A stretch of DNA of 64,000 nt, taken from Candidatus Tectimicrobiota bacterium (GTDB lineage Bacteria; JACPUC01). The stretch lies in the NCBI GenBank assembly GCA_016192455.1, contig JACPUC010000006.1, positions 124,001 to 188,000 of the forward strand, read 5' to 3'. Position 1 is the first letter of the stretch, and each line of letters begins with the position of its first letter. This document shows, one piece after another, positions 16,089 through 51,023 of the stretch. The position numbers were made by a program, and so were the translations under genes. The notes below the pieces were generated by a model. That model was not told the origin of the DNA. It did no database searches and was given only the letters and a program-made list of their open reading frames with translations.

Positions 16089-17662
16089 TGGGCACCTCCC
16101 GCGAGCCGGGCGCGTCCGCGCATCGTCGGGCCGCCGTTGCCGACGCGCATCGTCTGCATCGGCTGTCCCTTGCCGCAGTTCGGGATGGGGTAGACCTTGA
16201 AGTCGTTGCCCACGGCGTCGATGCTCATGAGGTAATCCTTCGAGTCCGCCGAGATGCCGCCGTTGCGGTAGAGCGTCGTCAGCTCGCCGCGCTCGATCTT
16301 GTAGACCTTGCGCGCCGTGATGCGGAAGTTCTCGCGCGACTCGCTGATCGACGGGATGCGATGCCCCGCCAGGTAGTAGCCCTCCTCCACCTCCCGCAAG
16401 ATCGAGTGCGGATCGCGCTCTCCCCCGGCGAAGACGGTGTTCGTCATGCGCACGAGCGGCACGTAGACCGGGTCGGTGGCGCGCATCGAGCCGTTCGGCT
16501 CCGTTCCCATGATGGCGGCCGACTCGCGGCTGTTCATGAAGCCGGTGAAGATGCCGCGGTCGATGTGGACGACGCGGCGGGCCTTCACCCCTTCAGCGTC
16601 GTACGCGTAGTGGCCGAACCCCTGCAGCGCCGGATCGGAGTAAGCGCTGACCAGCTCCGAGGCGACGCGCTGGCCGAGCATGTTCTGCCGCAGGCCGCCG
16701 TAGAGCCAGGTGCGGCCGGCGTAGCCGGTCTCCATCTTCAGGGCGCGGTCGGCCTCCACCGGATGGCCGACAATCTCGTGCACGAGGAGGGCATTGTAGT
16801 GCGGATCGGTGACGACGACGGCCTCGCCGAGGTCCGCCGGCAGCGGCGGCGCCTGCGCCAGCTCCAGGGTCTCCTCGGTGAGGCTTTGGGCGAAGTGGAG
16901 GAAATCCGTCCCCGCGACGTTCTCCCCGCGCAGCACCTCGTAGCCCTTCAGGTCGCCGAGGGTGTCGTAGTGAGCTTCGGGCGCGCCGCTGCCCGCCGCC
17001 ACCACGTAGAAGAAGCCGCGCGTCAGCGGGTAGGTCTGGTCGATGCAGGCGCCCTCGGAGCTGACGAAGAGCTCGCGGATGAGGCCGCTCGCCACCGCGG
17101 CGTGACTCGAGAGGACCCGGGGACTCAGCCCGGCGGCGCATTTCGTGGCCTCCACCGCCTCGCGCAGCATCTGCTCGCTCGGAATGCCGCGGGGGTCCTC
17201 GCGCCAGGGGAAGACGACGCTGTCCCGGCAGACCTCGACGCGCGCCAGGGTGGTGGAGTGCAGCGAGTTGCTCAGGGAACCGAAGAGGCGCTCGGCCTCC
17301 TGCTTGCGACGGGCATTGGCGATGGCGCGCTCGTAGGCGTGGCGCAGGCCCTCCGCGAGGACCTCCTGGAGGGCGTCCAGGCTGCCGCCGCCGAGCGCCT
17401 GGCCGAAGTAGCCCGGGGCGACCATTCCTTCTCGCCCACCCGCGCCCGCCAGGACGCGCACCCCGAACGACATCTCGGCGTCGTCGCCGCACTCCTTCGC
17501 CTTGCCGTCCTCGGCGGCGCCGTAGCGCGTCTCGCGCACCTCAAGGCGGACATCGGCGTAGGCGCAGCCTGGGCGACGGGCGGCGAAGTCCCGCACAAAC
17601 TGGGAGAGGCGTTCCTTCAGCTCGTCGATGACCTCGAGGCGCAGCGCGGATCGCTCGAGCAT
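16085..17662 (-). CDS. tldD: TldD-family metalloprotease
   Basis: HEIVGH.VEAD, YD.EG, RMTNT, CGKGQP.Q...VG.GGP. Confidence 0.9.
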   Translation of the reverse strand: MLERSALRLEVIDELKERLSQFVRDFAARRPGCAYADVRLEVRETRYGAAEDGKAKECGDDAEMSFGVRVLAGAGGREGMVAPGYFGQALGGGSLDALQEVLAEGLRHAYERAIANARRKQEAERLFGSLSNSLHSTTLARVEVCRDSVVFPWREDPRGIPSEQMLREAVEATKCAAGLSPRVLSSHAAVASGLIRELFVSSEGACIDQTYPLTRGFFYVVAAGSGAPEAHYDTLGDLKGYEVLRGENVAGTDFLHFAQSLTEETLELAQAPPLPADLGEAVVVTDPHYNALLVHEIVGHPVEADRALKMETGYAGRTWLYGGLRQNMLGQRVASELVSAYSDPALQGFGHYAYDAEGVKARRVVHIDRGIFTGFMNSRESAAIMGTEPNGSMRATDPVYVPLVRMTNTVFAGGERDPHSILREVEEGYYLAGHRIPSISESRENFRITARKVYKIERGELTTLYRNGGISADSKDYLMSIDAVGNDFKVYPIPNCGKGQPMQTMRVGNGGPTMRGRARLAGGAH

Positions 17663-18000
17663 TGCCCACCGCTCCTTTCTCCCCCGTGCGCCTCAGCCGG
17701 CGCGAGCAGGATGTCAGCCCCCTCCACCTTCACCTGGTAGGAGGCGACGCGCAGGCCCGGATCGAAGGTGCAGGCGCCGCTGCGCACGTCGAAGGACCAC
17801 ATGTGCCAGGGGCAGGTGACCTCGGCGCCGTTGAGGAACCCATCGGCCAGCGGACCACCCGCATGCGGGCAGGTGTTGTCGATGGCGTAGAACGAACCCG
17901 CCACCCTGAAGAGGGCCACACTGGTTTGACCATACTGCGCCATGATGCCGGCCCCCTCCGGGACCTCGTCTATTTCGGCGACTTTCACGAACTCAGCCAT
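17617..18000 (-). CDS. Rieske [2Fe-2S] ferredoxin
   Basis: MAEFVKVA...CPHAGGPL...CPWH.W.FD..SG; its 3' end overlaps the tldD start. Confidence 0.9.
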   Translation of the reverse strand: MAEFVKVAEIDEVPEGAGIMAQYGQTSVALFRVAGSFYAIDNTCPHAGGPLADGFLNGAEVTCPWHMWSFDVRSGACTFDPGLRVASYQVKVEGADILLAPAEAHGGERSGGQCSSDPRCASRSSTS

Positions 18001-18721
18001 GGAGGACTCCATACTCCCATGTCTCCAGGGGAACTCCACCCCGAGGCGGCATCCCTGAAGCTCCCCGTCCACGTCCGCTTGCGCCTGACGGCAGGACGAA
18101 ACACCGTCGCGGCGCGCCACGCCGCACCTTAGGTGGGGATGGCTCGATCGCATGTTCCGCCGCCCCACGCCTCCAGGATGCGCCGCTGCTTCCGGTGCTG
18201 GTTCGGGCGATTCCGCGACGCCCTGCGGTGGAGGGGGCATCCCTTCACCCCGCGGTCCGGGAAACCACCCTTGCGCCGGGTTCCTGTCCGCCCCGCCCCT
18301 GTTTCCGGCCCTGGATCACGCCGCAAAGTATAGGTGTTGACGGCTGCCCGGAAAAGGCCTTTCCGTCCGCAGCAGGTTGGCGGAGCCGCGCAGCCGCGCA
18401 GCGTGGCGCCATGGACCCAGCCCCTCATCGAGGCCGCGGCCCCCGCTGTCGCCGCCGGGGCGGGCGGCCCGGCGCACGTGCTGGGGCGGCGGCGGGTTGA
18501 GCCGGGGAGAGTTTCCGCGCGGTGCCGGCCGGGCGAGATCGGCGCAGACAGGTGGCGGCTGGCCGCGGCGGGCTGAAAGGAGAGGAGGCAAGGAAGGGCT
18601 TGACGGTGGGGCCGGAGGCTAAGCTAGAGAATACTGATGCGCACTTTCCTCGCACCGCCGCGGCGCCTCCCTCCATACCGCCCCCGGCTGCGCTGACATC
18701 TTGCTAAGTTCTCCTGGAACC

Positions 18722-18735
18722 TTGACGTTGATCAA
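18722..18735 (+). promoter_or_regulatory. FNR/CRP-family binding site
   Basis: TTGAC-GTTG-ATCAA, 9/10 match to TTGAT-N4-ATCAA; centred at -41.5 if TAAATT (18758-18763) is the -10 element. Confidence 0.68.
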
Positions 18736-18762
18736 GGAATTTCATGGAGCAGGGCCTTAAAT

Positions 18763-18781
18763 TCAAATGAGTGTCATTCTC
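18763..18781 (+). promoter_or_regulatory. Fur-like box upstream of the FTR1 operon
   Basis: TCAAATGAGTGTCATTCTC, 12/19 match to GATAATGATAATCATTATC, in an AT-rich patch upstream of an iron permease. Confidence 0.62.
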
Positions 18782-18879
18782 ACTTACGCTGCGGCGTCTG
18801 CTCCCCACCCTGGACCTTCCCACGCGCCGCCGCCAGCGGCAGGGTGGGAGAGGCAATCGCGTCGGCAAAGGGAATACCC

Positions 18880-20166
18880 ATGGAGGTTCTTTCCAAGCTC
18901 TTAGAGGCCCTCGTGGTGACGCTGCGCGAAGGCGTCGAGGCGGCGCTCGTCATCGGGATCGTGCTCGCCTACCTCGGCAAAACCCAGCAGCGCCACCTCG
19001 ATCGTTTCGTCTACCGCGGCTTGCTGGCCGCCGTTGGGGTGAGCTTCCTGACCGCTCTCTTGCTCTACAAACTCGGCCTGGATGCCGAAAACGAGCTCTT
19101 TGAGGGCATCTTCATGCTGCTCGCCGCGGCGCTGGTGGGGACCTTCCTCATCTGGATGTGGCGGACCAGCGGCACCCTGAAGCAGCGCCTGGAGGCCCGC
19201 CTTGGGCAGGTGACCGCGGCAGGATCGGGAGTCGGGATATTCTGCTTCACCTTCGTGATGGTGCTGCGGGAGGGCATTGAGACGGTGATGTTCCTCCTGG
19301 CGCTCTCCGCGAGCATCGGCGCCAACCCCTTCTACAATCTCCTGGGAGGCAGCCTCGGACTCCTGCTCGCCCTCATTTTCGGCATCCTCTTCGTGAAAGG
19401 GAGTGTGCGCGTCAATCTGAAGAGCTTCTTCGGCGCCACCAGCGTCGTCCTCGCACTGCTCCTCCTGAAGCTCGTGGCCAACGGCCTGCATGAGTTCTTC
19501 GAGGTCGGGGTGCTGCCCTCCACGCCATGGCTCCTTGCGGTGGTCGGATTCCTCACCAAGAAGAGCATCTCGGTCCTCATCCTCATCGCCTTGATCGCCA
19601 TCCCGGCCGCCGTGATGCTGCGCGATGGGCTGCGCAACCAGGCCGCCCTGCCCGATCCCTCCCTCTCGGAGGCGGAGCGGCGCAAGCTGCGCGCGGATGT
19701 CCGCCGCGCGAAACGCTGGACCGCCACCACGGCGGCGCTCGCTCTTGCCGTGAGCACACTGCTCGGCGTGTCGCTCGTGGCCGCGGCGCGCCGCGGTTTT
19801 GACCCGGCCCCGCAGGCCCTCGCCGCGAGCGCAACGATCCGCCTGCCGCTGGCGGAGGCGACGGCGCAGCCGATGCAGAAGTATGCCGTGGACCTCGACG
19901 GCGCCGCCGTCCGCTTCTTCACGGCGGTGAACGGCAAGGGTGGCGTTGCCGTCGCCTTCGACGCCTGCTCGATCTGTCCCGTCAAGGGATACTCCCATCA
20001 AGGCGATCATCTGGTCTGCAACAACTGCGGGGCGCCGATCGCCCTCCACAGCATCGGTGAGCAGGGCGGCTGCAACCCCATTCCCCTGTCCGCGGTGGTG
20101 ACCGAGGACGCCCTGGTGATTCGCGCGGCGGACCTGGCGGCGGAACGGGATCGCTTCCTGCGCTAA
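18880..20166 (+). CDS. FTR1-family iron permease fused to a C-terminal DUF2318 Cys-rich domain
   Basis: Two RExxE motifs (REGVE, REGIE); C-terminal FDACSIC...GY...LVCNNC...GGCNPIP. Confidence 0.88.
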   Translation: MEVLSKLLEALVVTLREGVEAALVIGIVLAYLGKTQQRHLDRFVYRGLLAAVGVSFLTALLLYKLGLDAENELFEGIFMLLAAALVGTFLIWMWRTSGTLKQRLEARLGQVTAAGSGVGIFCFTFVMVLREGIETVMFLLALSASIGANPFYNLLGGSLGLLLALIFGILFVKGSVRVNLKSFFGATSVVLALLLLKLVANGLHEFFEVGVLPSTPWLLAVVGFLTKKSISVLILIALIAIPAAVMLRDGLRNQAALPDPSLSEAERRKLRADVRRAKRWTATTAALALAVSTLLGVSLVAAARRGFDPAPQALAASATIRLPLAEATAQPMQKYAVDLDGAAVRFFTAVNGKGGVAVAFDACSICPVKGYSHQGDHLVCNNCGAPIALHSIGEQGGCNPIPLSAVVTEDALVIRAADLAAERDRFLR

Positions 20167-20208
20167 CCCGGAGCAGTCAAACAGGCGTGGTCAGGAAAGG
20201 GGAGCTCG

Positions 20209-21594
20209 GTGCTCGGTCGTCTCCTCGTGAAGTCGCTCCTGAAGCAGCGCAGCCGGACGCTCCTCGTGCTGCTCTCCGCCGCCACGGCGGCCACGCTGAT
20301 CTCGGCGTTCCTCAGCCTTGCCTTGCAGCTCACGGAGAAGGTGGCGGCAGAGCTGCGCTCCTTCGGTGCCAACATCGTGCTGAGCCCGCGCGCCGAGCCG
20401 CTCGAGGTGGAGATCGGCGGTTTGAAGCACGTCGCCGCGGCGGAGGCGGCCTACCTCGACGCCGCCGACCTGCCGAAGATCAAGGGCATCTTCTGGCGGC
20501 ACAACATTGTCAGCTTCGCGCCGTTCCTCTCGGGCGCGGTGGAGGTGGAGGGGAGGCGGGTCCTCCTCGTTGGCACCTGGTTCCAGCGGCCGGTCGACGT
20601 GCCCGGTGGGGGGAGTCTGCTGATCCGCGGCGGCAGCCAGCGCCGGGCCGTCTCCGAGGAGGCCTTGCGGAAGGCGGCCATGACCGCCCCCAGCGAGGCG
20701 ACGACGTTTCGCGCCGGTGTGCGCACCCTGGCCCCCTGGTGGCAGGTGGAGGGGAGATGGCTCGGCAACGAGGAGGATGCCGTCCTCGTCGGCCGCCTCC
20801 TCAGCCAGCGACTCAATGTCGGCCCCGGCGGCACGCTGCGCCTCACCGCCGAGGGTCGAAGCATGAGCCTGCCGGTGCGCGGCATCGTCGCCACCGGCGG
20901 GCCGGAGGAAGAGCAGCTCTTCGTTCGCCTGGAACTCGCCCAGGCGATCCTGGGGCTCCCCGGCAAGGTGGAGAAGGTCCAGGTCAGCGCTCTGGTCAGC
21001 CCGGACAACGCGCTGGCGGGGCGCGCCGAGCGTATCGGCCCGGAGAAGCTCCCCCAGGAGGAGTACGAGAAGTGGTACTGCACGCCCTACCTCAGCTCCA
21101 TCATCCATCAGCTTGAGGAGGCGCTGCCGGCGGCGAAAGGGAAAGCGATCCGCCGGGTGAGCGAGGCGGAGGCGGGCTTCCTGGGCAAGATGCGGCTGAC
21201 GCTCCTCCTCATCGCCGGCATCGCCTTGGTGGTCGCCGCCCTCGGCGTCATGGCGACGCTCATGACAGCCATCTACGAGCGGCGCGAGGAGTTCGGGCTC
21301 ATGAAGGCGATCGGCGCCAACCGGTCGCAGGTGGGGCTGCTGCTCCTCCTCGAGAGCGGGCTGACGGGCCTGGCGGGCGGGGCGCTCGGTTATGCCGCGG
21401 GCCTCACCTTCACGCGGCTCCTCGCTGCCTCCGTCTTCTCCGCCGCGCCTGCCGCGCCGCCCTCCCTGGCGCTCCAGGGCCTCGTCCTCACCCTCACCCT
21501 CCTCCTCTCGGCGGGGGTGGCGCTCCTGGGGGCGTTGCTGCCGATGCGAGGCGCGATGCGGCTCGATCCGGTTCAGACCCTGCGAGGAGAGTAA
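20209..21594 (+). CDS. MacB/FtsX-type ABC transporter permease
   Basis: ELRSFGANI, large periplasmic loop (contains WYCTPY), ERREEFGLMKAIGA, ends LRGE. Confidence 0.9.
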   Translation: MLGRLLVKSLLKQRSRTLLVLLSAATAATLISAFLSLALQLTEKVAAELRSFGANIVLSPRAEPLEVEIGGLKHVAAAEAAYLDAADLPKIKGIFWRHNIVSFAPFLSGAVEVEGRRVLLVGTWFQRPVDVPGGGSLLIRGGSQRRAVSEEALRKAAMTAPSEATTFRAGVRTLAPWWQVEGRWLGNEEDAVLVGRLLSQRLNVGPGGTLRLTAEGRSMSLPVRGIVATGGPEEEQLFVRLELAQAILGLPGKVEKVQVSALVSPDNALAGRAERIGPEKLPQEEYEKWYCTPYLSSIIHQLEEALPAAKGKAIRRVSEAEAGFLGKMRLTLLLIAGIALVVAALGVMATLMTAIYERREEFGLMKAIGANRSQVGLLLLLESGLTGLAGGALGYAAGLTFTRLLAASVFSAAPAAPPSLALQGLVLTLTLLLSAGVALLGALLPMRGAMRLDPVQTLRGE

Positions 21595-21595
21595 G

Positions 21596-22711
21596 ATGCG
21601 CGGCATGCGCTGGATCATCCTCTGCGGCGCCCTGCGCCATCGCAAGGCGCGGGTCCTCCTCTCGGTGTCTGCCCTCACGCTCGGCGCCGCGCTCATCGTC
21701 ACCACGGTGAACCTGCGGCAAGGCATCCGCGGCAAGCTGGCCGCGGAGCTGCAGAACTACGGCGCCAACCTCCTCGTCACCCCGGCGCCCGGCGCCGCGC
21801 CGCAGCTCGCCGAGGCGCGCCTGGCGGTGCTTGAGGGGGAAGCGACGCGGGGTCGCCTGGTGGGGTACGCGCCGGTCCTCTACGTGAGAGCCAAGGCCGG
21901 CGGTCGCGACGTCGTCGTCGTCGGCACGGACGTCGCCGCCATGCAGCGCATTAGCCCCTGGTGGAAGGTGGCGGGGGCCTGGCCGCGGCGTCCCGACGAA
22001 GCGCTCGTCGGCGCCAACGCCGCGGCGAAGCTGGGACTGCGCGTCGGCGACAGATTTCGCGCGGCGCAGGGCGCAGAGGCGCTCGAGCTCGCCGTAGCCG
22101 GCATCCTGCAGACGGGGGACGCCGAGGAGCACCAGGTCTTCGTGGCGCTGCCGGGCGCCCAGCGTCTTGCCCAGCGCCCCGGGCAGATCACCTCGGTGCT
22201 CCTCCGCAGCCGCGCCGGGGAGGGTCTCGAGGCCCTTGCCGCGGCGCTCCAGGCGGCCTGGCCGGATGCCGTGGTGCGCACCCTGCGCCAGACCGCGCTG
22301 GCGGAAGCAGCGCTGCTCGGCAACCTCGAGCGCTTCCTCCTCGCGGTCAGCCTTCTCGTCCTCTTCGCCGCCGGACTCTGCGCCTTTGCGACGATGAACA
22401 CGGAAGCCCTGGAGCGCAAGGTCGAGATCGCACTCATGCGGGCCCTCGGAGCCGATGGGCGGGAAATCGGCTGGATCTTCACCTGCGAGGCCCTGGGGGT
22501 CGGCCTCCTGGCGGGGCTCCTCGGCTGCGTCCTTGGTATCCTCCTGGCGCTGGTTATCGGCATGAGCGTCTTTCATACCCTCGTCGTGCCGAGTTTCGTC
22601 AGCCTCCCCGCCGGACTCCTGGCGGGCCTGCTCGTGTCGCTCCTGGCAAGCCTGTCGGTTGTCCGCCGCGCGGCGAGCCTGCCCCCGGCGCTGGTACTGC
22701 GCGGCGAGTGA
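21596..22711 (+). CDS. MacB/FtsX-type ABC transporter permease (second)
   Basis: ELQNYGANL, ERKVEIALMRALGA, ends LRGE; ATG 1 nt after the previous stop. Confidence 0.9.
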   Translation: MRGMRWIILCGALRHRKARVLLSVSALTLGAALIVTTVNLRQGIRGKLAAELQNYGANLLVTPAPGAAPQLAEARLAVLEGEATRGRLVGYAPVLYVRAKAGGRDVVVVGTDVAAMQRISPWWKVAGAWPRRPDEALVGANAAAKLGLRVGDRFRAAQGAEALELAVAGILQTGDAEEHQVFVALPGAQRLAQRPGQITSVLLRSRAGEGLEALAAALQAAWPDAVVRTLRQTALAEAALLGNLERFLLAVSLLVLFAAGLCAFATMNTEALERKVEIALMRALGADGREIGWIFTCEALGVGLLAGLLGCVLGILLALVIGMSVFHTLVVPSFVSLPAGLLAGLLVSLLASLSVVRRAASLPPALVLRGE

Positions 22712-22778
22712 GCGCTACCACGTCGACAAGGGGACACGTCACCCCGATGCCGCTTCACTCTCGCTCGAGGGATTGATC

Positions 22779-23519
22779 ATGGCGCCCTTGATTCACCTGC
22801 ATGAGTTGACGAAGGACTACCCGAACGGCGTGCGCTCCCTCGATCGCATCAGCGTGGAGATCGAACGGGGCGAGTGGGTTGCCGTGATGGGAGCCTCAGG
22901 CTCGGGGAAGACCACCCTCCTGAACATGATCGCCGCCCTCGACCGGCCCACCGCGGGCTCGCTCCGGATCGACGGCATCGACCTCGTCAGTCTTGGAGAG
23001 GAGGATCGCACGCGTTTCCGGCGCGAGAAGGTGGGCCTCGTCTTCCAGCAGTTCTACCTCATCCCTTACCTGAGCGCCGTCGAGAACGTCATGCTGGCGC
23101 AGTACTTCCACAGCATGGCCGACCGCGACGAAGCCGCCCGGGCGCTCCATCAGGTGGGGCTGGGAGAGCGGCTCCACCACCTGCCGGCGCAGCTCTCCGG
23201 TGGTGAGCAGCAGCGCGTCTGCCTGGCGCGGGCGCTGATCAACGACCCCGCCATCATCCTCGCCGACGAGCCGACGGGGAATCTCGACGCGCAGAACGAG
23301 GTGCTGGTGATGGAGCTCTTTCAGGCCCTGCACGCCGCCGGCCACACCCTCCTCATCGTCACCCACGATGCGCACATCGGCGCCCGGGCGGACCGCATCG
23401 TCCAGCTCGAACACGGGCGCGTCGTTCCCGCCGGAGCAGAGCCTGCCGCTCCTCTGATGGGGAATGGCGACGCCGGGGCCGCCCGCCGACAGGTGGCCTG
23501 GACGCCGGGCGGGGCCTGA
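22779..23519 (+). CDS. ABC transporter ATP-binding protein (LolD/MacB type)
   Basis: [32 protein letters not shown]. Confidence 0.95.
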
Positions 23520-23602
23520 GGGGGAGGTCGCCCCTCGCGCCGGCGCGGCGCCGACTCCCGGCCGTGACGGTGGTCGGGCCGGGCCTGTCACGCAGACGCT
23601 GC

Positions 23603-23631
23603 TTGACAGGAGGGGGGAGGGCGCCTATATT
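23603..23631 (+). promoter_or_regulatory. Sigma70 promoter of the apbE operon
   Basis: TTGACA (23603-23608), 17 nt spacer, TATATT (23626-23631). Confidence 0.8.
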
Positions 23632-23633
23632 TT

Positions 23634-23652
23634 GAGATTGAAACTCATTCTC
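23634..23652 (+). promoter_or_regulatory. Fur-like box over the predicted transcription start
   Basis: GAGATTGAAACTCATTCTC, 14/19 match to the Fur consensus; shares TCATTCTCA with the site at 18763. Confidence 0.75.
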
Positions 23653-23686
23653 ATTTATCCTAACGACGTTGCAGGTCGATCGCCGC

Positions 23687-24778
23687 ATGCTCTCCCGACG
23701 CCGCTTTCTCCGTAGCACCCTGGGCGCCCTTGCCGGACTGCTCGTCCTCCAGCGTCCCGCTCATACCTCAGCGCTGCGGCGCTACCGCGCCCTGCCCATG
23801 CTCGGCACGCTCGTCGAGGTGAGCATCTCGGCGTCGCCGGAGACCGCCGCCCCACCGCCGCGCCAGGCCGTCTCGCCCAGCGAGGCATGCTTCCGCACCG
23901 CGTTCGCCGCCGTGCGGCAGGTCGACCACCGCATGAGCGTCTTCCAGGCCGCCAGCGACGTGAGCCGGGTCAACGCCGCCGCCGGCTCCGGCGCCGTGCC
24001 GATTGGCGCCGACACCGCCCTTGTCCTCACGACGGCGGGGCACATCGCCAGGCAGAGCGGCGGCGCCCTCGATGTCACGCTGGGCCGCCTGAGCGCCTGG
24101 CAGCGCCGCAGCGGAGCGTTCGTCCTGCCCCATCGCCTCATTGATGCCGCGCTTGCGGCTGGAGGCATGGCTGCCCTGCACCTCGGGGCCGGAGGCAGGC
24201 TCGCCCGGCTCGCCACGCCGCAGGCGCAGCTCGATCTCGGCGCGATCGCCAAGGGCTACGCGGTGGATGCGGCACTCACGGCGCTGCGGCGGGATAGGGA
24301 TGTGACAGCGGCGCTGGTCAACGCGGGAGGCGATCTCCGGGCCTGGGGAGAACCGCCGGGCGCGGCCGCCTGGCGGATCGGCGTGCGGCACCCGCTGGAG
24401 CCGCGCCGCCTGCTCCTCGTCCTCCTTCTCGAGGAAGGCGCGGTGGCCACCTCCGGGAACGACCTCGAGGGCTACGGGGAGGGGCAGGCTCGCGCCGCGT
24501 CGGGCCTGGTGCTCGATCCCCGCAGCGGCGCCGCGACGCCGCGGGATCTCACCGCCACGGTGCTCGCCGGCTCCGCCATGGAGGCCGATGCGCACGCCAC
24601 GGCGGCGCTGGTCCTCGGCCCCGAGGAGGGCCTCCCCTACCTTGCCAGGGTGGGGGCGGAAGGGCTCTTCGCGCGCGGCGTCGAGCGCAAGTCCGGCCCG
24701 CGCCTCCTGGTGCTCTGCGGGGAGCGCACCCGGAGCCGCATCGTGTGGCTGGCGGAGGAGGCGGAGATCGTCTCGTAA
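23687..24778 (+). CDS. apbE: FAD:protein FMN transferase with Tat signal peptide
   Basis: MLSRRRFL twin-arginine signal; MLGT, S.VSRVN, GALDVT, LDLGAIAKGYAVD, NAGGD, ATSG, ADAHATA. Confidence 0.92.
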   Translation: MLSRRRFLRSTLGALAGLLVLQRPAHTSALRRYRALPMLGTLVEVSISASPETAAPPPRQAVSPSEACFRTAFAAVRQVDHRMSVFQAASDVSRVNAAAGSGAVPIGADTALVLTTAGHIARQSGGALDVTLGRLSAWQRRSGAFVLPHRLIDAALAAGGMAALHLGAGGRLARLATPQAQLDLGAIAKGYAVDAALTALRRDRDVTAALVNAGGDLRAWGEPPGAAAWRIGVRHPLEPRRLLLVLLLEEGAVATSGNDLEGYGEGQARAASGLVLDPRSGAATPRDLTATVLAGSAMEADAHATAALVLGPEEGLPYLARVGAEGLFARGVERKSGPRLLVLCGERTRSRIVWLAEEAEIVS

Positions 24779-25034
24779 GGAAGGTCAGCGCCCCGCCGGC
24801 CGAGCCTGCGGGGCGCCACCACGAGCAGCATGCCAGGGGACAACGGGGACGCGGCTGGCCAGAGCACGACCCCCGTCGCCCCTGGGGGTGGTTCCGACTG
24901 CAGAGCTCCCATGGAGTGCAGCAACGGAACCCCTGCGTGTTCCTCTCGATCTCTCTACCACAGGGGTGAAGAGAGGTAAACCTTGCGCGCCATGCTCTCC
25001 TGTCTTGTTCCTTGCTGGCATGGAGGTGTCGAAG

Positions 25035-26462
25035 GTGCATCCTCTCTCCGACCGAGTGCATCGTCTCAGAGTCGGCATGTGGTGGGCGGCGTTCCTGGGC
25101 GCGTGGTTTCTGCTGCTCCTGGCGCTGGCGGACGTCACGGCGCAGGAGCGCCCGGCGGCCGGCGGCGCTTCGCCCGCGGAGGTCCGCATGCAGCAGCTTG
25201 AAGCGGAGATGCGGGCCCTGACGAAGGAGCTCGCCGCCATGCGCGAGCAGTTCAAAGGCGACGGGCGGCTGGCCGAGGTGGATCGCAAGATCGAGGTGCT
25301 GGCCGGTGAGCTGGAGAGCCTGCGCACCCAGCTCACCGTGCCGGCGAAGAAGGAGCTGAAGAGCCAGTTCGGCCTGGGGCCGGCGGCCTCGTCGGTCTAC
25401 CAGCTCACCCAGGGGCTCTCCATCGGCGGCTACGGCGAGGCGAGCTACCGCAGCTTCTTCGATCCCGACGATCCCCCTGCCAAGGTGGACTTGACGCGGG
25501 CAGTCCTCTACTTCGGTTACAAATTCTCCGACCGTATCGTCTTCAACTCTGAGATCGAGTTCGAGCATGCCACCACGGGTTCGACGGTGAGCGCCGGGAG
25601 CGGCGAGGCCTCCGTAGAGTTCGCGGCGCTGGACTTCTTCCTGAGGCCGGAGATCAACGCGCGCGCCGGTCTGCTCCTCGTTCCCATGGGGTTCCTCAAT
25701 GAGACGCACGAGCCGCCGTTCTACCATGGCGTGCAGCGGCCCGAGGTGGAGCGCCAGATCATCCCCTCCACCTGGCGCGAGAACGGCTTCGGCATCTTCG
25801 GCAATCTCGGCGACAAGGTGAGCTATCGCACCTACCTCATCAACAGCGTGAACGCCAAGGGATTCCGCGCCTCCGACTTGCGCAACGTCCGGCAGAAAGG
25901 GAACGAGGCGCTGGCCGAAGACTTCGCCTGGGTCGGGCGCCTCGACGTGAAACCGATCCCGGAGCTCCTCCTTGGCGGCTCCTTCTTCCTGGGCGATACC
26001 GGCCAGGACCAGACGTTCGCCGGACGCAAGGTGGACGCCTTCACCGCGCTCGGCTCGCTGCACGCCCAGCTTCGCTATCGTGGAATGGAGCTGCGGGGCC
26101 TAGGGGTGTGGGGGTCCATCGACGACGCCGAGGCGCTGAGCGCCGATCCGGCCATTCGCGGCCCCATCAGCGAGGAGGTCTGGGGCGCCTACGGCGAGAT
26201 CGCCTACGACCTCATGCGCCTCATCAAGCCCGAGTCGCAGCAGTCGCTCACGCCCTTCTATCGCTTCGAGCGCTGGAACACCCAGGATGACGTGCCGCGC
26301 GGCTTCGTCGCCGACCTGCGGCGCGATGTCACCCTCAACACCTTGGGCCTCGACTACAAGCCCCACCCGAACGTGGTCTTGAAGAGCGAGTTCCGCTTCT
26401 TCGAGCAGGAGCGGGGCGAACGGTCCGACGAGTTTGCCTTAGGCATCGGCTATGTCTTTTGA
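25035..26462 (+). CDS. Outer-membrane beta-barrel porin with N-terminal coiled coil
   Basis: Signal peptide (..ADVTA/QE), coiled coil, IGGYGE, SEIEFEH, C-terminal GIGYVF beta signal; GTG start 8 nt after GGAGG (alternative ATG at 25020). Confidence 0.8.
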   Translation: MHPLSDRVHRLRVGMWWAAFLGAWFLLLLALADVTAQERPAAGGASPAEVRMQQLEAEMRALTKELAAMREQFKGDGRLAEVDRKIEVLAGELESLRTQLTVPAKKELKSQFGLGPAASSVYQLTQGLSIGGYGEASYRSFFDPDDPPAKVDLTRAVLYFGYKFSDRIVFNSEIEFEHATTGSTVSAGSGEASVEFAALDFFLRPEINARAGLLLVPMGFLNETHEPPFYHGVQRPEVERQIIPSTWRENGFGIFGNLGDKVSYRTYLINSVNAKGFRASDLRNVRQKGNEALAEDFAWVGRLDVKPIPELLLGGSFFLGDTGQDQTFAGRKVDAFTALGSLHAQLRYRGMELRGLGVWGSIDDAEALSADPAIRGPISEEVWGAYGEIAYDLMRLIKPESQQSLTPFYRFERWNTQDDVPRGFVADLRRDVTLNTLGLDYKPHPNVVLKSEFRFFEQERGERSDEFALGIGYVF

Positions 26463-27079
26463 TGAAGGAACGGCTTTCGATGCGGCAACGCTTCGTGGTG
26501 GGTCGTAGCGGCTGGGGCCGCGGCGCGGGTCTCGGGTTCGCGGCGCTCTGCCTCGGCTTCTGGAGTCTTGGCCTCTGGGGCTGGGGAGGTCCGGCCGCGC
26601 AGGCGCGGGTCTTCTTCAGCATCGAGGAGGGGCTGCAGCAAGCCTTTCCCGAGGCGACACGCTTCAGCAGCCGCACCTTCATCCCCACGCCGGAGCAGCA
26701 GGCCGCCCTGGAGAAACGCGCCGCGGCGGCCTTCTCGCGCCAGCTCCTGAAGGTCTGGATGGCGCACGCCGGGGAGCGGCTCCTCGGCTACGCCAGCATT
26801 GACATCCACACCGTGCGCACGCTCCCCGAAGCGGTTCTCATTGCGCTCACGCCGCAGGGGAGCGTGCGCACCGTCATCATTCTGGCGTTCCATGAGCCGT
26901 CCGAGTACCAGCCGCCGGGGCGGTGGCTCGAACTCTTCCAGGAGAAGCGTCTTGCCCCCACCCTGGCGTTCGGGCGGGATATCGCCGGCATCACCGGCTC
27001 GACGTTGAGCTCCCGCGCCATCACGAGTTCGGTGCGCCGGGCGCTCGCTGTGTACGAGGTTTTTCTGCGAGGATCGTAA
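26462..27079 (+). CDS. FMN-binding (flavinylated) periplasmic protein
   Basis: Signal peptide; HEP..Y.P...WL..F; DIAGITGSTLSSRAI resembles the ApbE target motif; TGATG overlap with the porin. Confidence 0.82.
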   Translation: MKERLSMRQRFVVGRSGWGRGAGLGFAALCLGFWSLGLWGWGGPAAQARVFFSIEEGLQQAFPEATRFSSRTFIPTPEQQAALEKRAAAAFSRQLLKVWMAHAGERLLGYASIDIHTVRTLPEAVLIALTPQGSVRTVIILAFHEPSEYQPPGRWLELFQEKRLAPTLAFGRDIAGITGSTLSSRAITSSVRRALAVYEVFLRGS

Positions 27080-27080
27080 C

Positions 27081-27596
27081 ATGCGCTTCGTGGTGACCGG
27101 CGAGTGGCGCGCCAATACGTTGCTCCGCCTCATCCTTCTCCTCTTCCTGCTCTTCGTCGCCCTCCTCTGGCTGACGAACGCGCTCCTCTTCTTCTCCAAG
27201 ATGAGCCTCTCGCCAGCATCCATCGTGGAGTTCTACCGTGGCTCCGAGGCGCGCTTCCTGACCCCCCGCAGCTACCAGGGGCTGCTCGAGATGAGCCACT
27301 TCCACCTCTTCGCCATGGGCATCCTGCTCATGACCATGGCGCACCTGCTGCTCTTCGCGCGCCTCTCGAACCGCGTCAAGGCGTGGACGATCCTCATCTC
27401 CTTCCTGGGGGCCCTCGCCGATGAAGGGGGCGGCTGGCTCGTGCGCTTCGCGCATCCCGGTTTCGCCTCCCTGAAGCTGGCGGGGTTCGTCGCCTTGCAG
27501 CTTGGCCTGGGCGTTATGATCATCGCCTGCGCCCTGGCGGCGGCCTACCCGCAGACGCTGGCCTCGCGCGCCTCGGGGATCATTTCCTCGACGTAG
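27081..27596 (+). CDS. Small 4-TM membrane protein with His residues, candidate heme b protein
   Basis: Hydrophobic helices; SHFHLFAMGILLMTMAH places two His 13 residues apart in one helix; 1 nt after the upstream stop. Confidence 0.72.
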   Translation: MRFVVTGEWRANTLLRLILLLFLLFVALLWLTNALLFFSKMSLSPASIVEFYRGSEARFLTPRSYQGLLEMSHFHLFAMGILLMTMAHLLLFARLSNRVKAWTILISFLGALADEGGGWLVRFAHPGFASLKLAGFVALQLGLGVMIIACALAAAYPQTLASRASGIISST

Positions 27597-27786
27597 GGAG
27601 CCCATTCCTCTTCAGGCTGGCAGCCCCGGAGAGCGCCCGCGAGGGCGCGCCGCCGTGGCGACGCGAAGAGGCTGGGACGACGCTTCGGCTCCACCGCGCG
27701 GTGGGCCAGGGGGGCAATTCCTCCCACCTGAGGGAAGACTGAACGCCAACATGGGCAACGAGCCCAGTCCAGAGAAGGAAGCCTCG

Positions 27787-28290
27787 ATGCAGCACCAACC
27801 TGTGTACGTGCAAGCACTCCAGCCGTGTCCGCGCTCGGCACACGCCGACGCCATCCTGGCCCAACGCGACGGACCGGCGACCTGGCGGTTCTGCCTCCGT
27901 CACGACGAAGGACCCCTCCTGCACCAGTTCCAGCATCAGGGCACGATCTGCTCTCACTCCCCCTATGCCGTGTCGCTGCTGCTCCTCTTCCTGGCCAGGA
28001 TACGGCTCGCCTCCGCCGTGATCGCTCCCTGCGAGCACGCCGGCTACCTCGGCATCCTGAACTTGGAGCACGACGGCAACCAGGCCGAGCTGCGCTGCGC
28101 TCCCGCCGCAGCCATCCTCATGGCGACGGTGTGCAAGGCGCCGCTCCTCATAGCCCGGTCGCGGCGCGCGTGCACCGACTGCCCCCCGGTCCCCTTCAGC
28201 AGGCCTGAAGGCGCCACGCTGCGGGAACCCTGGCGCGAGGAGGAGCTCCGTTCCTGGCTCGCGGGCCTGACACCGGAGGATTTCCGCTAA
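27787..28290 (+). CDS. Degenerate bifunctional-nuclease (DUF151)-like protein
   Basis: Layout matches DUF151 (ELRCAPAAAILMA...APLLI, C-terminal EELRSWLAGLTPEDF) but the conserved RP.THD and RPSDA motifs are replaced. Confidence 0.6.
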   Translation: MQHQPVYVQALQPCPRSAHADAILAQRDGPATWRFCLRHDEGPLLHQFQHQGTICSHSPYAVSLLLLFLARIRLASAVIAPCEHAGYLGILNLEHDGNQAELRCAPAAAILMATVCKAPLLIARSRRACTDCPPVPFSRPEGATLREPWREEELRSWLAGLTPEDFR

Positions 28291-28494
28291 GCCGCCTGCG
28301 GGGTGGCGGCGGCGCCCCCGCGACGAGATGACGAGGAGGCGGCAACGTTTGGCAGGCGAGGAGTGGAGGCTCGCCCCCCGGGCCTCCCCCTTCCAAGGGA
28401 GGTGACCGGCAGACGCAGCGCTTCAGGGGTGCGACGGTGCCGCGCGTTCTCCCCCTCGACCCGCAGGCTCGGTACTGCTTGAAGCGCTGCGGAC

Positions 28495-28523
28495 TTGCAC
28501 CGCCGGGCGCAACGGCGTATAGA
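28495..28523 (+). promoter_or_regulatory. Possible sigma70 promoter of the MFS gene
   Basis: TTGCAC, 17 nt spacer, TATAGA. Confidence 0.4.
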
Positions 28524-28600
28524 GGTCTGGGCGGCGGCGCCGCCTGGCGCGCGGCAAGCGCCCAACGCCGCATCGTTTCGCCGGTTTCTCCACACCGAAC

Positions 28601-29857
28601 GTGGTCGCTGCCTCACGTATCCCGAAGGGTCCCGACATCGTCCCGCCTGTTCTCTCCAGTACGGCATCACAGTATCGCTGGATCATCCTGGGCGTCGTCT
28701 CCCTGAGCATGATGTGCTACGCCCTGGTCTACCAGTCCATCCCGCCGGTCATCTCATTCATCATCCGGGACCTCGGCATCAGCCATGGTCAGGCTGGACT
28801 CTTGACGAGCGGCTTTGCCTTGCCTGGGATCATCATCGCCGTGCCGGTCGGCATCCTGGCCGGCGTCTACGGTCCACACCGGCTCGGCGTCCTGGCGTAC
28901 GCCGCGCTCGCCGGCGGTGCGCTCCTGGCGGCTCTGAGCACCACGTACGCCCTCCTCCTCGCCGGCAGGCTTCTGGCCGGGATCGGCGCCATGAGCCTGA
29001 TGGTCCTCCTGCCGCCGATGTTGGTTCATTGGTTCCACGGCCGCGAGGTCGGGCTGGCCATGGGGGTCTTCCACACCTCTTACACCGTGGCGGCGATCCT
29101 TGCGTTCAACGTCTACAGCCACATCGGCGCCGCCTTCACCTGGCAGACCACACTCTTCGTGAGCGCCCTCATCGCCCTGCTGGGCGGCATCCTGTATGCC
29201 AGCCTGGTGCGACCGTTGCCCTCAACTACGGCCTCCGTCAGCCGGGCTGCCACCTTCCGGGCCGACTGGTCGCTGGTGCTGCGCCGCATCTGGCCGCTCG
29301 CCCTGTCGTGGTTTTGGCTCAATGCCGCCATGCTCTCGATGTTCACCTTCACGCCCGACGCCCTCATCGAGCGCGGCTGGACGGCCGGCGCCGCGGGCCG
29401 GCAGACGAGCATGGTCCTGTGGCCGGCTTTCTGTCTCACCTCCTTCGCCGGCATCCTCATCGACCGCACCCAGCGCAAGCTGCTCTTTATCGTCGGCGGC
29501 GGGGGACTGACCACCATCGCCATCCTCGGTTTGGCCACGCCGGCGATTCCCGTCTGGTCCGCCATGCTCGTCATGGGGCTGGGGATTTCCTTCTTCCCCT
29601 CGGCCCTCTACTCCCTGCCGAATGACCTCGTGCCGCCGCGCGCCTTGAACCTCGCCTTCGCGCTGTTGATCACCTTCCAGAACCTGGGGGTGGCGCTGGG
29701 GCCGTTCTTTTCAGGCCGCGTGCGCGACGCGACGGGAGCCTACACCTGGCCCTACCTCCTGATGACCGCCTACCAGGCTCTGGCGCCGCTCTCGGCGCTG
29801 GCGATCCTGCCGATCCGGCGGCGCGTCCAGCAGGAGCGCCGCCACGCCGGCGCCTGA
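28601..29857 (+). CDS. MFS transporter
   Basis: About 12 TM helices; GILAGVYG.H and GILIDRT.R loop motifs; GR...G.G; G.VRDATG.Y. Confidence 0.88.
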   Translation: MVAASRIPKGPDIVPPVLSSTASQYRWIILGVVSLSMMCYALVYQSIPPVISFIIRDLGISHGQAGLLTSGFALPGIIIAVPVGILAGVYGPHRLGVLAYAALAGGALLAALSTTYALLLAGRLLAGIGAMSLMVLLPPMLVHWFHGREVGLAMGVFHTSYTVAAILAFNVYSHIGAAFTWQTTLFVSALIALLGGILYASLVRPLPSTTASVSRAATFRADWSLVLRRIWPLALSWFWLNAAMLSMFTFTPDALIERGWTAGAAGRQTSMVLWPAFCLTSFAGILIDRTQRKLLFIVGGGGLTTIAILGLATPAIPVWSAMLVMGLGISFFPSALYSLPNDLVPPRALNLAFALLITFQNLGVALGPFFSGRVRDATGAYTWPYLLMTAYQALAPLSALAILPIRRRVQQERRHAGA

Positions 29858-29889
29858 GCGGCGGGCGCGCGGGCCGCACTTCGCGGCGG

Positions 29890-31209
29890 TCAGTCGTCCA
29901 ATGAGGTGTCAGGGGCAGCCGTGGGGGTGGGGGAGGAACGGAACAGCAGGCCATCCAGCACGATGACGAAGATCATGGCGGAGAGCACCGGGTTCCGCAG
30001 GATGAGGGCGAGGACGTTCGGCATGCCCCGCAGGGACTCCGGCGGCAGTGCCGTGAAGCCGAGGGCGCAGAAGATGGCGAAGCCGACCGTGAAGGCGTGG
30101 CGCTTTGTGAAGCGCGCCGTTCCGGCGCCCCAGATTTCGGCCCCCAGCCCGATGTTCATGCCGGCGATGGCGAGCAGCACCGCCCCGGCGACGGGACGCG
30201 GAATCGCCGCCAGCAGGGCGCTGAGCGGTCCGAGGGAACTGAGCACGACGAGGAGCGCCCCGCCCGCCGCCATGGCCCAGCGGCTGGCGACGTTGGTCAT
30301 GGAGACGAAGCCCAGGCTGCCGGGGTAGCCGACGAGGGGCACCGCCGAGAGCAGCGCCGCCAGCGTTCCCTCGCCCAGGCTGTTGATGACCGCCTGCCGC
30401 AGCAGGTGGCCCTCCTGCCGTCGCACGCGCACCGCCGTGGAGACGCCGAGGGTGGCCCCCATGCCGAACGCCGCGGTGGCGAGCTGCACGAAGGTGAAAA
30501 GAATGAGCAGCCCCAGGGGCGGCCAGCGCAGCCCCAGGAGCGCCGGCCGCGGCGGGCTGATCCAGGGCAACACCGGCACCTGCACGAGCCACCAGCCCGG
30601 CAGGAGACGAAAAAGAAGGTAGCCCAGGGTCACCACCACGATCACCGGCACCGTGGCGATGAACCCCCGCAGGCGCAGGGCGATGAAGCCGCAGAGGAGG
30701 GCCAGGCCGAACGCCGCCAGGCCCGGTCCGGCGCCCTGGGCGACCATGAGGCGGATGCCGAACGGCGCGGAGGAAAGGCCGATCATCATCACCAAGGTGC
30801 CGATGACCAGCGGGGTGAAGAGGGGCCGGATGCGCCCCACCAAGCGGCTGGCGGCGAGGATGGCCACGATGACGCCGCTGAGCGCCAGGGCGCCGAAGAT
30901 GCTGGCGAAGTCATGCCCGGCGCGATGCGACTCGAGCATGGCGAAGATCGTCAAGACGAACGGTCCCGACATCATGCAGAGGGCGTGACCGAAGAACGCC
31001 TGCAGCAGTGATCCCAGGCCGATGATCCAGAGGGTTGCGGCGATGAACTTGCCCAGCACCGGCCCCTCGAGGTTCCATCCCAGGCCGAGGAGCACCAGGC
31101 TGAACATCAGGGGGTAGGTGGCGAACGCCACCCACTGGGCCGCATAGATGAGGAGCTGCAAGGCGGGAGGACGCTCTTCGACGCCGAATCGGAAAGCTTG
31201 CGCCGTCAT
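29890..31209 (-). CDS. NCS2 (xanthine/uracil permease) family transporter
   Basis: FGVEERPP, SLLQ.FFG, LFTPLV.G, T.VASR, AIP.PV.G; several substrate-site residues look divergent. Confidence 0.85.
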   Translation of the reverse strand: MTAQAFRFGVEERPPALQLLIYAAQWVAFATYPLMFSLVLLGLGWNLEGPVLGKFIAATLWIIGLGSLLQAFFGHALCMMSGPFVLTIFAMLESHRAGHDFASIFGALALSGVIVAILAASRLVGRIRPLFTPLVIGTLVMMIGLSSAPFGIRLMVAQGAGPGLAAFGLALLCGFIALRLRGFIATVPVIVVVTLGYLLFRLLPGWWLVQVPVLPWISPPRPALLGLRWPPLGLLILFTFVQLATAAFGMGATLGVSTAVRVRRQEGHLLRQAVINSLGEGTLAALLSAVPLVGYPGSLGFVSMTNVASRWAMAAGGALLVVLSSLGPLSALLAAIPRPVAGAVLLAIAGMNIGLGAEIWGAGTARFTKRHAFTVGFAIFCALGFTALPPESLRGMPNVLALILRNPVLSAMIFVIVLDGLLFRSSPTPTAAPDTSLDD

Positions 31210-42252: not shown

Positions 42253-42551
42253 CACACCTCCTTGAGGCAGAACCGAGGAGAGAGAACGAGTAAGAAGGGG
42301 AGAAACAGCCCGGGAGAACGTGGACCCCGGCAGCTACAACCGCGCCTCCCTTCCCCCAGGGCATGAGCACAGTTACTCTACCGCAGAGGCGGTGTTTCCG
42401 CAAGAAAAAAAGTGGCAACCCTTACGGCTGACGGCGCGCCGAGCCGTCGCCCAGCGGACGCGGCTGGTTGCCGCACCGCGAGGCGCCTGCGGCCCGGCTT
42501 CTCGTTGGTAGGTCCTGCTCTTCCTGCGACGCACATCGCGCGGAGGTTTCC

Positions 42552-43911: not shown

Positions 43912-44239
43912 GAAGAGGGAATTTGCGCTTGGGTTCCTTTCCAGGGGAACGCCCTGCCCCGCGGAATACGAGGAGGGTGGATGGCGTTCCCTGAAGGTGG
44001 AGGAAAAGGGTGGCCTGACTCCGGCGGCCCCGCCGAGCCTCGCGTCAGAGGCATGATCGCCACCTGGCTGGCGGGATGGTGATCTCCCCACCCCTTGCAG
44101 GCGGTGAGATGACAGCAATGACAGAGAGTGCGCCGTGGGCCTCGCCACCAGGGGGTGGCCCGCGAGTCGCAGAGGCGCCGCACGATCGACGCTCGCCGGG
44201 GTGCGGTTTCCGGAAGCCCGGCGGTGCAAAGGGGTAACG

Positions 44240-44809: not shown

Positions 44810-44981
44810 CAGGCCGTGGGCCTCAGGCTAGCGAAGTGGTGGCGGCGCCGGGGTGCGCCCCCGCGACGACCATCGCGGCGCGACACCGCCCCTCGCCTGC
44901 GGCGGCGGCATCGCGCCTGCCGCTGCGCTCTCTGCCTACCTGGGCTCTCTACGAGCCTTTAGCATAGAAAGGATGCCGCCG

Positions 44982-46982
<2,001 letters not shown>

Positions 46983-47082
46983 CGAGCGTGAGCGGCGCGG
47001 CGCCTGCCGCGACCGCCGCACGGTGCGGGAGCTGGGTGGCGGCAGACCTGTCCGGCCTGGCCCAAAGCGGAGACGAGCGTTC

Positions 47083-47808: not shown

Positions 47809-47936
47809 GCTTTGTTCCTCCTGCCGGTGGATTGATCCGACAGCGCTGGGGTCATCTCCCCTCGAAGGTCCTCGCGTAGGTCCTCGGGGCACCCCCGGCG
47901 GCGTCTCTCCGGTGTAGGTTGCGCGCCGAGGTTACC

Positions 47937-50963: not shown

Positions 50964-51023
50964 TGGTGCGCCGCGCGCACCGGCGGACCACGGCTCGGAG
51001 GGCGCAAGGAGTTCGGCTCACCC

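Follow-up and report, generated by a model that had tools for sequence, protein, structure and literature searches.

Two kinds of described iron system come close to the eight-gene island (18880-27596) considered here, which lies in a stretch of 64,000 nucleotides from a Candidatus Tectimicrobiota bacterium (contig JACPUC010000006.1, positions 124,001 to 188,000; this whole stretch is called the window). The first is the fetMP-fetABCDEF system of Campylobacter jejuni and E. coli (cFtr1-P19, Cj1658-1665). In the parts of its published descriptions that were available, it resembles the island in its Fur box, its FTR1 permease, the cysteine motif of its DUF2318 domain (CxxC-x13-CxxC-x14/15-C in C. 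jejuni 1651/FetA; Liu et al., PMC6083913), two FtsX permeases and an ABC (ATP-binding cassette) ATPase in the same order, and a downstream periplasmic redox protein, which binds FMN (flavin mononucleotide) in some phyla. According to the accessible sections of PMC10783030, C. jejuni depends on each of the four genes fetA to fetD for growth under iron limitation, and what their products do biochemically is unknown. In some fet clusters, the place of thioredoxins is taken by FMN-binding proteins (PMC6083913; PMC8238504), and published models of these clusters invoke periplasmic reduction (PMC6083913), again in the available portions of these papers. The second kind comprises flavinylation-linked iron-reduction systems, namely PepSY-like FoxB/VciB, MsrQ-like and DUF4405/FezC (Meheust 2021; Huang 2024 preprint). 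In the parts of these two sources at hand, they share with the island an ApbE, an exported flavinylated protein, a membrane partner that bears histidines, co-location with iron transporters and Fur control. A link between flavinylation and iron assimilation is thus an established category in the accessible part of PMC8238504, and FezC-type dimers provide a precedent for small flavinylation-linked cytochromes in that of PMC10979944.

The island is probably best read as a Fur-repressed iron-acquisition locus made of two separable modules, one a cassette that reduces iron and the other an FTR1 fusion with its partners that imports it. All eight genes are on the + strand, show coding-type GC3 (G+C at third codon positions) in a window of ~70% G+C, and form two units, each behind a Fur-like box with a shared 9-mer. 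This layout had been put forward in an earlier sequence-only reading, with which both the coordinates and the Pfam matches agree. Window proteins were scanned against Pfam and NCBIfam, with a Pfam cut-off of E <= 0.01, and the genome to which the window belongs amounts to 4.46 Mb and is 88% complete. The features of the island are as follows.

18768-18782, + strand: Fur-type 7-1-7 box 1, TGAGTGTCATTCTCA, ~100 nt 5′ of the unit 1 start codon.
18880-20166, + strand: fusion of FTR1 and FtrD-like/DUF2318, 428 aa, identified by Pfam and by the motifs REGVE, REGIE and CxxC-x13-CxxC-x14-C.
20209-21594, + strand: FtsX-type ABC permease 1, FetB-like, identified by Pfam; it comes after the fusion gene in homologous loci.
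21596-22711, + strand: MacB_PCD/FtsX ABC permease 2, FetC-like; ATG start with an aggagag ribosome-binding site.
22779-23519, + strand: ABC ATPase, FetD-like, of the MacB/LolD/FtsE type (Pfam, NCBIfam).
23603-23631, + strand: sigma-70-like promoter of unit 2, TTGACA-17-TATATT, with 11/12 matches.
23633-23653, + strand: Fur-type box 2, two overlapping 15-mers, TGAGATTGAAACTCA and TGAAACTCATTCTCA, offset by 6 bases and directly 3′ of the -10 hexamer.
23687-24778, + strand: ApbE, a FAD:protein FMN transferase (FAD, flavin adenine dinucleotide) exported by the Tat (twin-arginine translocation) route, identified by Pfam; alternative TTG start at 23669.
24779-25076, no strand: GC-rich spacer of ~300 nt between apbE and the porin gene, without an Rfam match and without a called box or promoter.
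25077-26462, + strand: outer-membrane porin with a signal peptide, an N-terminal coiled coil and a 16-strand barrel, according to its model; alternative start at 25020.
26480-27079, + strand: exported RnfG-like FMN_bind protein with the flavinylation motif GITGSTLSS (Pfam, profile match to RnfG).
27081-27596, + strand: inner-membrane protein of the Aq_1264_TM family with four transmembrane helices (4-TM), from Atlas features and predicted structure.

In the proposed scheme, module A (18880-23519) would be a P19-less version of the fet system, in which an FTR1 permease fused to a cysteine-rich periplasmic DUF2318/FtrD-like domain works beside a heteromeric FtsX/MacB-type ABC machine, and module B (23687-27596) would be a self-contained envelope cassette. 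A general-type porin would admit iron species to the periplasm. There, the RnfG-like protein, to which the Tat-exported ApbE would attach FMN covalently, would act together with the 4-TM protein to reduce Fe(III) or Fe(III) chelates to Fe(II). The electrons would be brought from the membrane or the cytoplasm by the Aq_1264_TM protein, and the resulting Fe(II) would be carried across the inner membrane by the FTR1 fusion and its ABC partner.

The identity of unit 1 as a fet-type system of FTR1, DUF2318, FtsX and ABC components, proposed from the sequence alone, is borne out by Pfam, by sequence motifs and by gene order. The 428-aa protein matches FTR1 (PF03239, 6e-37) and then FtrD-like/DUF2318 (PF10080, 4.5e-25). 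Both REXXE motifs of FTR1 are kept, as REGVE at residues 16-20 and REGIE at residues 139-143, and the DUF2318 part has the cysteine motif CSIC-x13-CNNC-x14-C. The description of both permeases as MacB-type stands in part, as each has the FtsX domain (4.7e-19 in permease 1, 2.7e-16 in permease 2), but the MacB periplasmic core domain, MacB_PCD, is matched in the second only (1e-14). Permease 2 starts one base past the stop of permease 1, and the ATPase matches ABC_tran at 1.4e-36. P19 (PF10634) is absent from the island and from the 88%-complete genome, where imelysin/EfeO was not found either, so that the expectation that no P19 or EfeO partner exists elsewhere holds to that extent. A search of the genome with FeoB_N gave weak GTPase-like matches, the best of 52 bits, and no clear FeoB was seen. 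Unlike fetMP-fetABCDEF, therefore, the island has no P19 and no thioredoxins, its FTR1 and DUF2318 are fused, and its FMN-binding protein is encoded in a separate Fur-boxed operon with ApbE, a porin and the 4-TM partner. FtrABCD of Bordetella and Brucella, likened here by the Pfam name "FtrD-like" of PF10080, also has FTR1 and a membrane redox protein; unlike it, the island lacks P19 (FtrA) and a cupredoxin (FtrB).

The fused form of unit 1 is common in metagenomes, mostly without unit 2. In a broad sample, PF10080 is above the cut-off in 22 of 401 genomes. Among the loci compared, the canonical order FTR1-P19-DUF2318-FtsX-FtsX-ABC occurs in L137, with a downstream redoxin, and in L141; short DUF2318 forms occur in L128 and L134, and the fused, P19-less form occurs in two other genomes (L139, L140). 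Both PF03239 and PF10080 are present in 119 of the best 120 homologues of the fusion listed, the sources of which include Rokubacteria, NC10, Chloroflexi and Terriglobales. Sequence is sufficient to judge gene order in 25 metagenome loci; in 24 of them, the genes for the permeases and the ATPase lie 3′ of the fusion gene in the same order.

The evidence for iron control comes from the boxes. The 9-mer common to both units, TCATTCTCA (18774-18782 and 23645-23653), occurs 18 times in the genome when both strands are counted. Taken as 15-mers, the two sites are Fur-type 7-1-7 inverted repeats, TGAGTGTCATTCTCA and TGAAACTCATTCTCA (the latter at 23639-23653), and box 2 is doubled, with an overlapping match that starts 6 bases 5′ of TGAAACTCATTCTCA. 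A local consensus, TGAGAATNATTCTCA, was built from boxes 1 and 2, and the genome was scanned for it with up to 2 mismatches. Six sites result, two of which are box 1 (at 2 mismatches) and box 2 themselves; as it was these two that yielded the consensus, recovering them is circular. The best match, TGAGAATGATTGTCA with 1 mismatch, is directly 5′ of the only other FTR1 gene of the genome, on contig 20, which encodes a 676-aa fusion with an N-terminal cytochrome c domain (L012:7470-9505). This box is independent support for the motif, and the cytochrome c-FTR1 gene is probably a third member of the island's regulon. Two of the other three matches are inside genes and look like chance. The last one, TGAAAATAATTCGCA, is on contig 9 (L096, ~4359) in an AT-rich gap between small open reading frames (ORFs) without Pfam families, and may mark another member.

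The promoter TTGACA-17-TATATT abuts box 2; promoters of this kind were found at 2 sites, against 0.3 expected in shuffled sequence, and the geometry of promoter and box suits repression. Unit 2 thus has a Fur-type operator at its promoter and the genome a single Fur-family gene, as expected of a Fur regulon, and both operons are probably induced by iron starvation. Boxes also recur in other lineages. When the 350 nt 5′ of the porin gene were scanned with the classical Fur 7-1-7 consensus at up to 3 mismatches, 33 of the 59 related loci that could be evaluated had a box, a perfect one in five of them, as compared with 48 of 1180 random windows from the same loci, some of which may overlap real boxes. 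Upstream of the homologues of the unit 1 fusion, a box was present in 22 of 65 loci versus 24 of 650 random windows, many of the 22 having identical sequence and being probably close kin. Two further observations concern the boxes. A ~93%-identical relative (run X8) has 257 other letters in place of 197 bases between the ATPase gene and apbE (window 23476-23674); the exchanged bases contain the promoter and box 2, and the regulation of unit 2 may differ among close strains. Box 1, for its part, lies in the 640-nt intergenic region between unit 1 and a divergent gene for a Rieske [2Fe-2S] protein (17617-18240, - strand), and iron control might be common to both.

Linkage of the two units was surveyed in metagenome contigs anchored on the fusion protein, 18 of which extend at least 3.5 kb beyond the ATPase. 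ApbE, porin and FMN_bind follow the ATPase in the order of the window in three of these 18 loci (L157, L176 and L188), the island of L176 opening with a fur gene, and in L167 FMN_bind, ApbE and Aq_1264_TM lie 5′ of the fusion gene, that is, in another order. The fusion proteins of the three same-order loci are only 37-39% identical to that of the window, so the linkage is either old or has arisen repeatedly; the identity in L167 is 61% over a partial match.

By the available evidence, the junction in the window itself is genuine. In run X2, one contig of 15.6 kb covers the 3′ part of the ATPase gene and all of unit 2, and in two other studies, ~93%-identical relatives are represented by single contigs that run across the junction of unit 1 and unit 2 (X6 record 20, X8 record 25). 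The Logan contigs of four runs break only in the conserved ABC ATPase motif, at ~23120-23260. An assembly chimera was considered and rejected, since exact small X2 contigs tile the gap, the same relatives rank highest for the N-terminal as for the C-terminal part of the ATPase, and the same gene order is found on unrelated single contigs.

Unit 2 had been described as an ApbE/FMN_bind flavinylation module with a porin, and Pfam, a profile match to RnfG and a barrel model sustain this description. ApbE matches PF02424 at 5.3e-57 and has the twin-arginine signal SRRRFLRS. The 461-aa protein encoded next matches no Pfam family at the cut-off; it carries a signal peptide, forms a coiled coil in its N-terminal part and ends in GIGYVF, the last residue being aromatic. 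In its AlphaFold model (predicted local distance difference test, pLDDT, 75.8), it resembles the 16-strand porins OmpM1, OmpT and OmpC (Foldseek, E 3e-12 to 1e-10; template-modelling score, TM, by target 0.65-0.70), and on this model it is a general-type 16-strand outer-membrane porin. A porin profile gave nothing significant against PDB sequences, and 6648 homologues at E <= 0.001 were found among the 8000 candidates scored. Porin_O_P (PF07396, OprO/OprP) does not match the window porin at E <= 0.01; it matches a relative, L013, at 1e-5 and is found on 2 of 120 porin homologues among the matches listed.

The 199-aa FMN_bind protein matches RnfG (9eri_G) by profile at E 4.6e-9, with its ITGSTLSS aligned to ITGSTITS. 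G173 and T175 are invariant in 20 relatives, and the protein is predicted to be covalently flavinylated. It has in common with RnfG/NqrC the FMN_bind fold and the covalent-FMN threonine motif TGST. Unlike RnfG/NqrC, it is a soluble, exported protein with no other Rnf or Nqr subunits, and it has an extra conserved N-terminal half with the motifs HxVRTLPE and AFHEPxEYxP.

How often these genes travel together was assessed by an FMN_bind alignment scan with one genome per species, in which relatives are encoded in 579 of 599 pattern-matched genome stretches, neighbourhoods being counted in the best 80 of the 579. In all 80 loci, Aq_1264_TM comes directly after FMN_bind. Of the same 80 loci, 71 contain a porin homologue and 68 contain ApbE, which is mostly encoded downstream and in five loci upstream, as in the window. 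Anchoring on Aq_1264_TM instead, FMN_bind is within 1.5 kb in 24 of 29 loci. The carriers are environmental metagenome-assembled genomes (MAGs) of Myxococcota, Binatia, Methylomirabilota and Nitrospirota. A FUR-family gene, identified to the level of PF01475, is the commonest extra neighbour (17/80), just 5′ of the porin gene and on the same strand. Other neighbours are FeoA (5 loci), FeoB (6-7), imelysin (5) and FTR1 (6), and P19 and a dihaem oxidoreductase also occur. Four kinds of FTR1 neighbour are seen, namely a double cytochrome c-FTR1 fusion, an EfeU-like FTR1 with FeoB and DtxR_C-FeoA, FTR1 with P19, and plain FTR1. FtsX permeases of the unit 1 type are found in none of the 80 fetched flanks. 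Unit 2 is, then, an autonomous module that joins whichever Fe(II) permease is present, or none nearby.

The neighbourhood of the cassette bears directly on the direction of electron flow. Electrons could run the other way, from periplasmic Fe(II) to the membrane, if the flavoprotein and the 4-TM protein took up the electrons released when Fe(II) is oxidised in coupling with FTR1 transport, much as in Fet3/Ftr1 or FtrB/FtrD. FTR1-family permeases classically pair with an oxidase and not with a reductase. In three MAGs, moreover, double cytochrome c-FTR1 fusions of 812-867 aa replace the porin directly 5′ of FMN_bind/Aq_1264_TM (L027:6031-8469, L045:7299-9902, L046:7328-9907), with a fur gene in front in two of them, and the same box precedes the second FTR1 of the window's genome, itself fused to a cytochrome c domain. 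However, protein-bound FMN is a low-potential carrier that is ill suited to Fe(II) oxidation. FeoAB, a system that imports Fe(II) without oxidising it, is an equally frequent neighbour of the cassette, and 74 of the 80 loci have no FTR1 near the cassette. Published models of fet clusters, in the parts available, also favour periplasmic reduction. An oxidase-permease arrangement is, on this evidence, quite improbable. Iron reduction by the cassette is inferred because of the association with FeoAB, the low potential of bound FMN and the published replacement of thioredoxin by FMN-binding proteins; iron regulation in vivo would follow from the boxes.

A second alternative is that the two units are independent neighbours, unit 2 serving another metal or oxidative stress under a Zur, Mur or PerR paralogue. 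It would agree with the fact that each unit is mostly found alone and with the placement of the regulators beside the cassette in PF01475 only. Yet the neighbourhood is specific to iron (FeoAB, FTR1, P19, imelysin and DtxR_C-FeoA), the boxes fit the Fur 7-1-7 consensus, perfectly so in the five loci mentioned above, and the same-order linkage recurs in lineages as distant as the identities of their fusion proteins indicate. There is thus very little probability left for a pair of unrelated neighbours.

The 4-TM protein is the least certain step of the scheme. This 171-aa protein matches 0 Pfam families at the cut-off and 0 NCBIfam families; in particular, no Pfam match was obtained to PepSY-like, MsrQ-like, NapH-like, DsbD, NqrB/RnfD-like or DUF4405 carriers. 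Its assignment to Aq_1264_TM (PF27139) comes from an Atlas feature score of 0.97 and a structural TM of 0.90 to a cluster that is 100% PF27139, a match stated to meet the naming bar for that family. Aq_1264_TM comprises 482 representative clusters in an all-against-all HMMER search and is found in 43 of the 401 genomes of the broad sample, roughly a tenth. Y52, G54, E70, H73, H75 and H88 are nearly invariant. The model (pLDDT 93) has four transmembrane helices, and by the positive-inside rule both termini are predicted to be cytoplasmic, which would place E70, H73 and H75 at the periplasmic end of the second helix and H88 at its cytoplasmic end. Fused members have architectures consistent with this topology: the C terminus carries DtxR_C-FeoA or PilZ, and in a fusion with ApbE the two parts are joined by a basic linker and an extra hydrophobic segment. 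Unlike the partners in FoxB/VciB, MsrQ-like and DUF4405/FezC systems, the island protein has four transmembrane helices with three conserved histidines on one of them and belongs to none of these Pfam families; the dedicated porin of the cassette is another difference from those systems.

Three kinds of role come into question for this protein: conduction of electrons, passage or sensing of iron, and export of flavin. Histidines 13-15 residues apart on one transmembrane helix have the spacing of haem ligands in dihaem membrane cytochromes. It may be, as a tentative proposal, that Aq_1264_TM is a new class of redox partner, possibly a dimeric haem- or metal-binding protein, that wires a flavinylated periplasmic protein to cellular electrons. 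Together with the dedicated porin, it would then form an envelope-spanning Fe(III)-reducing route, independent of TonB and siderophores, that feeds any Fe(II) permease at hand, be it FTR1-DUF2318/ABC, FeoAB or cytochrome c-FTR1. Alternatively, Aq_1264_TM might itself conduct or sense Fe(II) at the inner membrane, or export flavin for ApbE, the flavoprotein being supplied with electrons from elsewhere. One helix would have conserved E, H and H at its periplasmic mouth and H at its cytoplasmic end, as a channel might, and C-terminal fusion to a cytoplasmic DtxR-type metal-binding domain with FeoA points the same way. The lack of a neighbouring permease in most cassettes and the presence of an Aq_1264_TM gene after a fet-type transporter without a flavoprotein in genome G309 are also in its favour, and the ApbE fusions would fit flavin supply as well. 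Against it stand the tight adjacency to FMN_bind, from whichever of the two genes the count is made, the dihaem-like histidine spacing and the lack of any likeness to known transporter folds in Foldseek and VIA-align. A role of this sort is accordingly held to be unlikely. The predicted complex of mature FMN_bind and Aq_1264_TM scores 0.16, below the mark of 0.32, and speaks neither for nor against binding.

Several observations weigh against the reading of the island as a reductive cassette that feeds an FTR1 importer. With respect to the proteins, the FMN_bind match to PF04205 is weak (2.2e-4, 22.2 bits as compared with a cut-off of 22), and it was the borderline case among the profile searches suggested beforehand, in which FTR1, DUF2318, MacB_PCD/FtsX and ApbE were all matched. 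The 4-TM model has no match in the PDB at E <= 0.001 by Foldseek, and a wide VIA-align comparison returns generic four-helix bundles alone, at Z <= 9, below the meaningful level for helical bundles; no recognisable cofactor fold emerges from either. The classical pairing of FTR1 with an oxidase belongs here too. With respect to regulation, no promoter was called in a search 5′ of box 1 and unit 1, and the overlap of some background windows with real boxes has been mentioned above. With respect to linkage, 15 of the 18 evaluable contigs have the fused unit 1 but not unit 2, and a majority of cassettes lack an Fe(II) permease at a distance of up to 10 kb; the counted cassette loci are, in addition, related MAGs and not independent. 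In L157, no Aq_1264_TM homologue was found. In L176 (12038-12514) and L188 (15390-15911), FMN_bind is followed by the gene for a small membrane protein of another kind, 158-173 aa long, with no Pfam family and an hhalign probability of 0.4 against the Aq_1264_TM profile; it has an HxH at the start of a helix, as Aq_1264_TM does, and may be an analogous partner. Finally, in G309 (L139:3469-4237), Aq_1264_TM and a truncated tandem copy directly follow the ATPase of a fused fet-type system, with no FMN_bind or ApbE nearby.

These points define what remains of the broader claims of the sequence-only reading. Coupling of the units is optional, because most cassettes have no near Fe(II) permease and 15 of 18 unit 1 operons have no cassette. 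A complete reductive uptake pathway is consequently plausible, linked to iron and preceded by Fur-type boxes, but its parts are optionally coupled and the direction of its electrons is inferred. The survey of gene neighbourhoods that had been suggested does recover adjacency, in the same order in three loci and in another order in a fourth, but the combination is not a fixed system. The idea that unit 2 replaces P19 and thioredoxin has to be revised. Loss of P19 is tied to the fusion of FTR1 with DUF2318 and is not compensated by unit 2, because the fused unit 1 so often occurs without it, and the exchange of thioredoxin for an FMN-binding protein is already published, in the available parts of the reports on fet clusters.

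The surroundings of the island offer some context. An Rfam scan of 17500-30000 gave no match at E <= 0.1, so no FMN or other riboswitch is seen in the spacers. On the 3′ side and the same strand lie a 211-aa ORF without a Pfam family (27655-28290) and a gene for a transporter of the major facilitator superfamily (28601-29857). Farther along, the window contains cytochrome c maturation genes (CcmE, CcmF, CcmB, CcmC-like and an ABC ATPase) at 44135-51728 and a BamD/YfiO gene at 40570-42255. From the Ccm and BamD/YfiO genes it follows that the organism is a diderm with periplasmic c-type cytochromes.

In the literature searched, which did not extend to the gene-cluster tables of PMC8238504, the porin-FMN_bind-Aq_1264_TM-ApbE cassette was not found described, and neither was a junction of this cassette with a P19-less fused fet system nor a function for Aq_1264_TM. 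Within that same search, the Aq_1264_TM family is new to the flavinylation literature. What is known already, then, is the link between flavinylation and iron and the exchange of thioredoxin for FMN_bind; what is both uncharacterised and widespread is the membrane partner.

In general, the periplasmic steps of iron uptake without siderophores are poorly understood, and the roles of FetA/DUF2318 and FetBCD are unknown even in Campylobacter. The island juxtaposes a stripped-down, fused and P19-less fet system, a complete flavin module with its own porin and a membrane partner from a family without an assigned function. Should this 4-TM family prove to carry electrons or to act as an iron channel, a sixth or seventh class would join the known flavinylation-linked membrane components, and the island would represent a defined and testable route of reductive iron uptake in diderm bacteria of iron-poor groundwater and soil.

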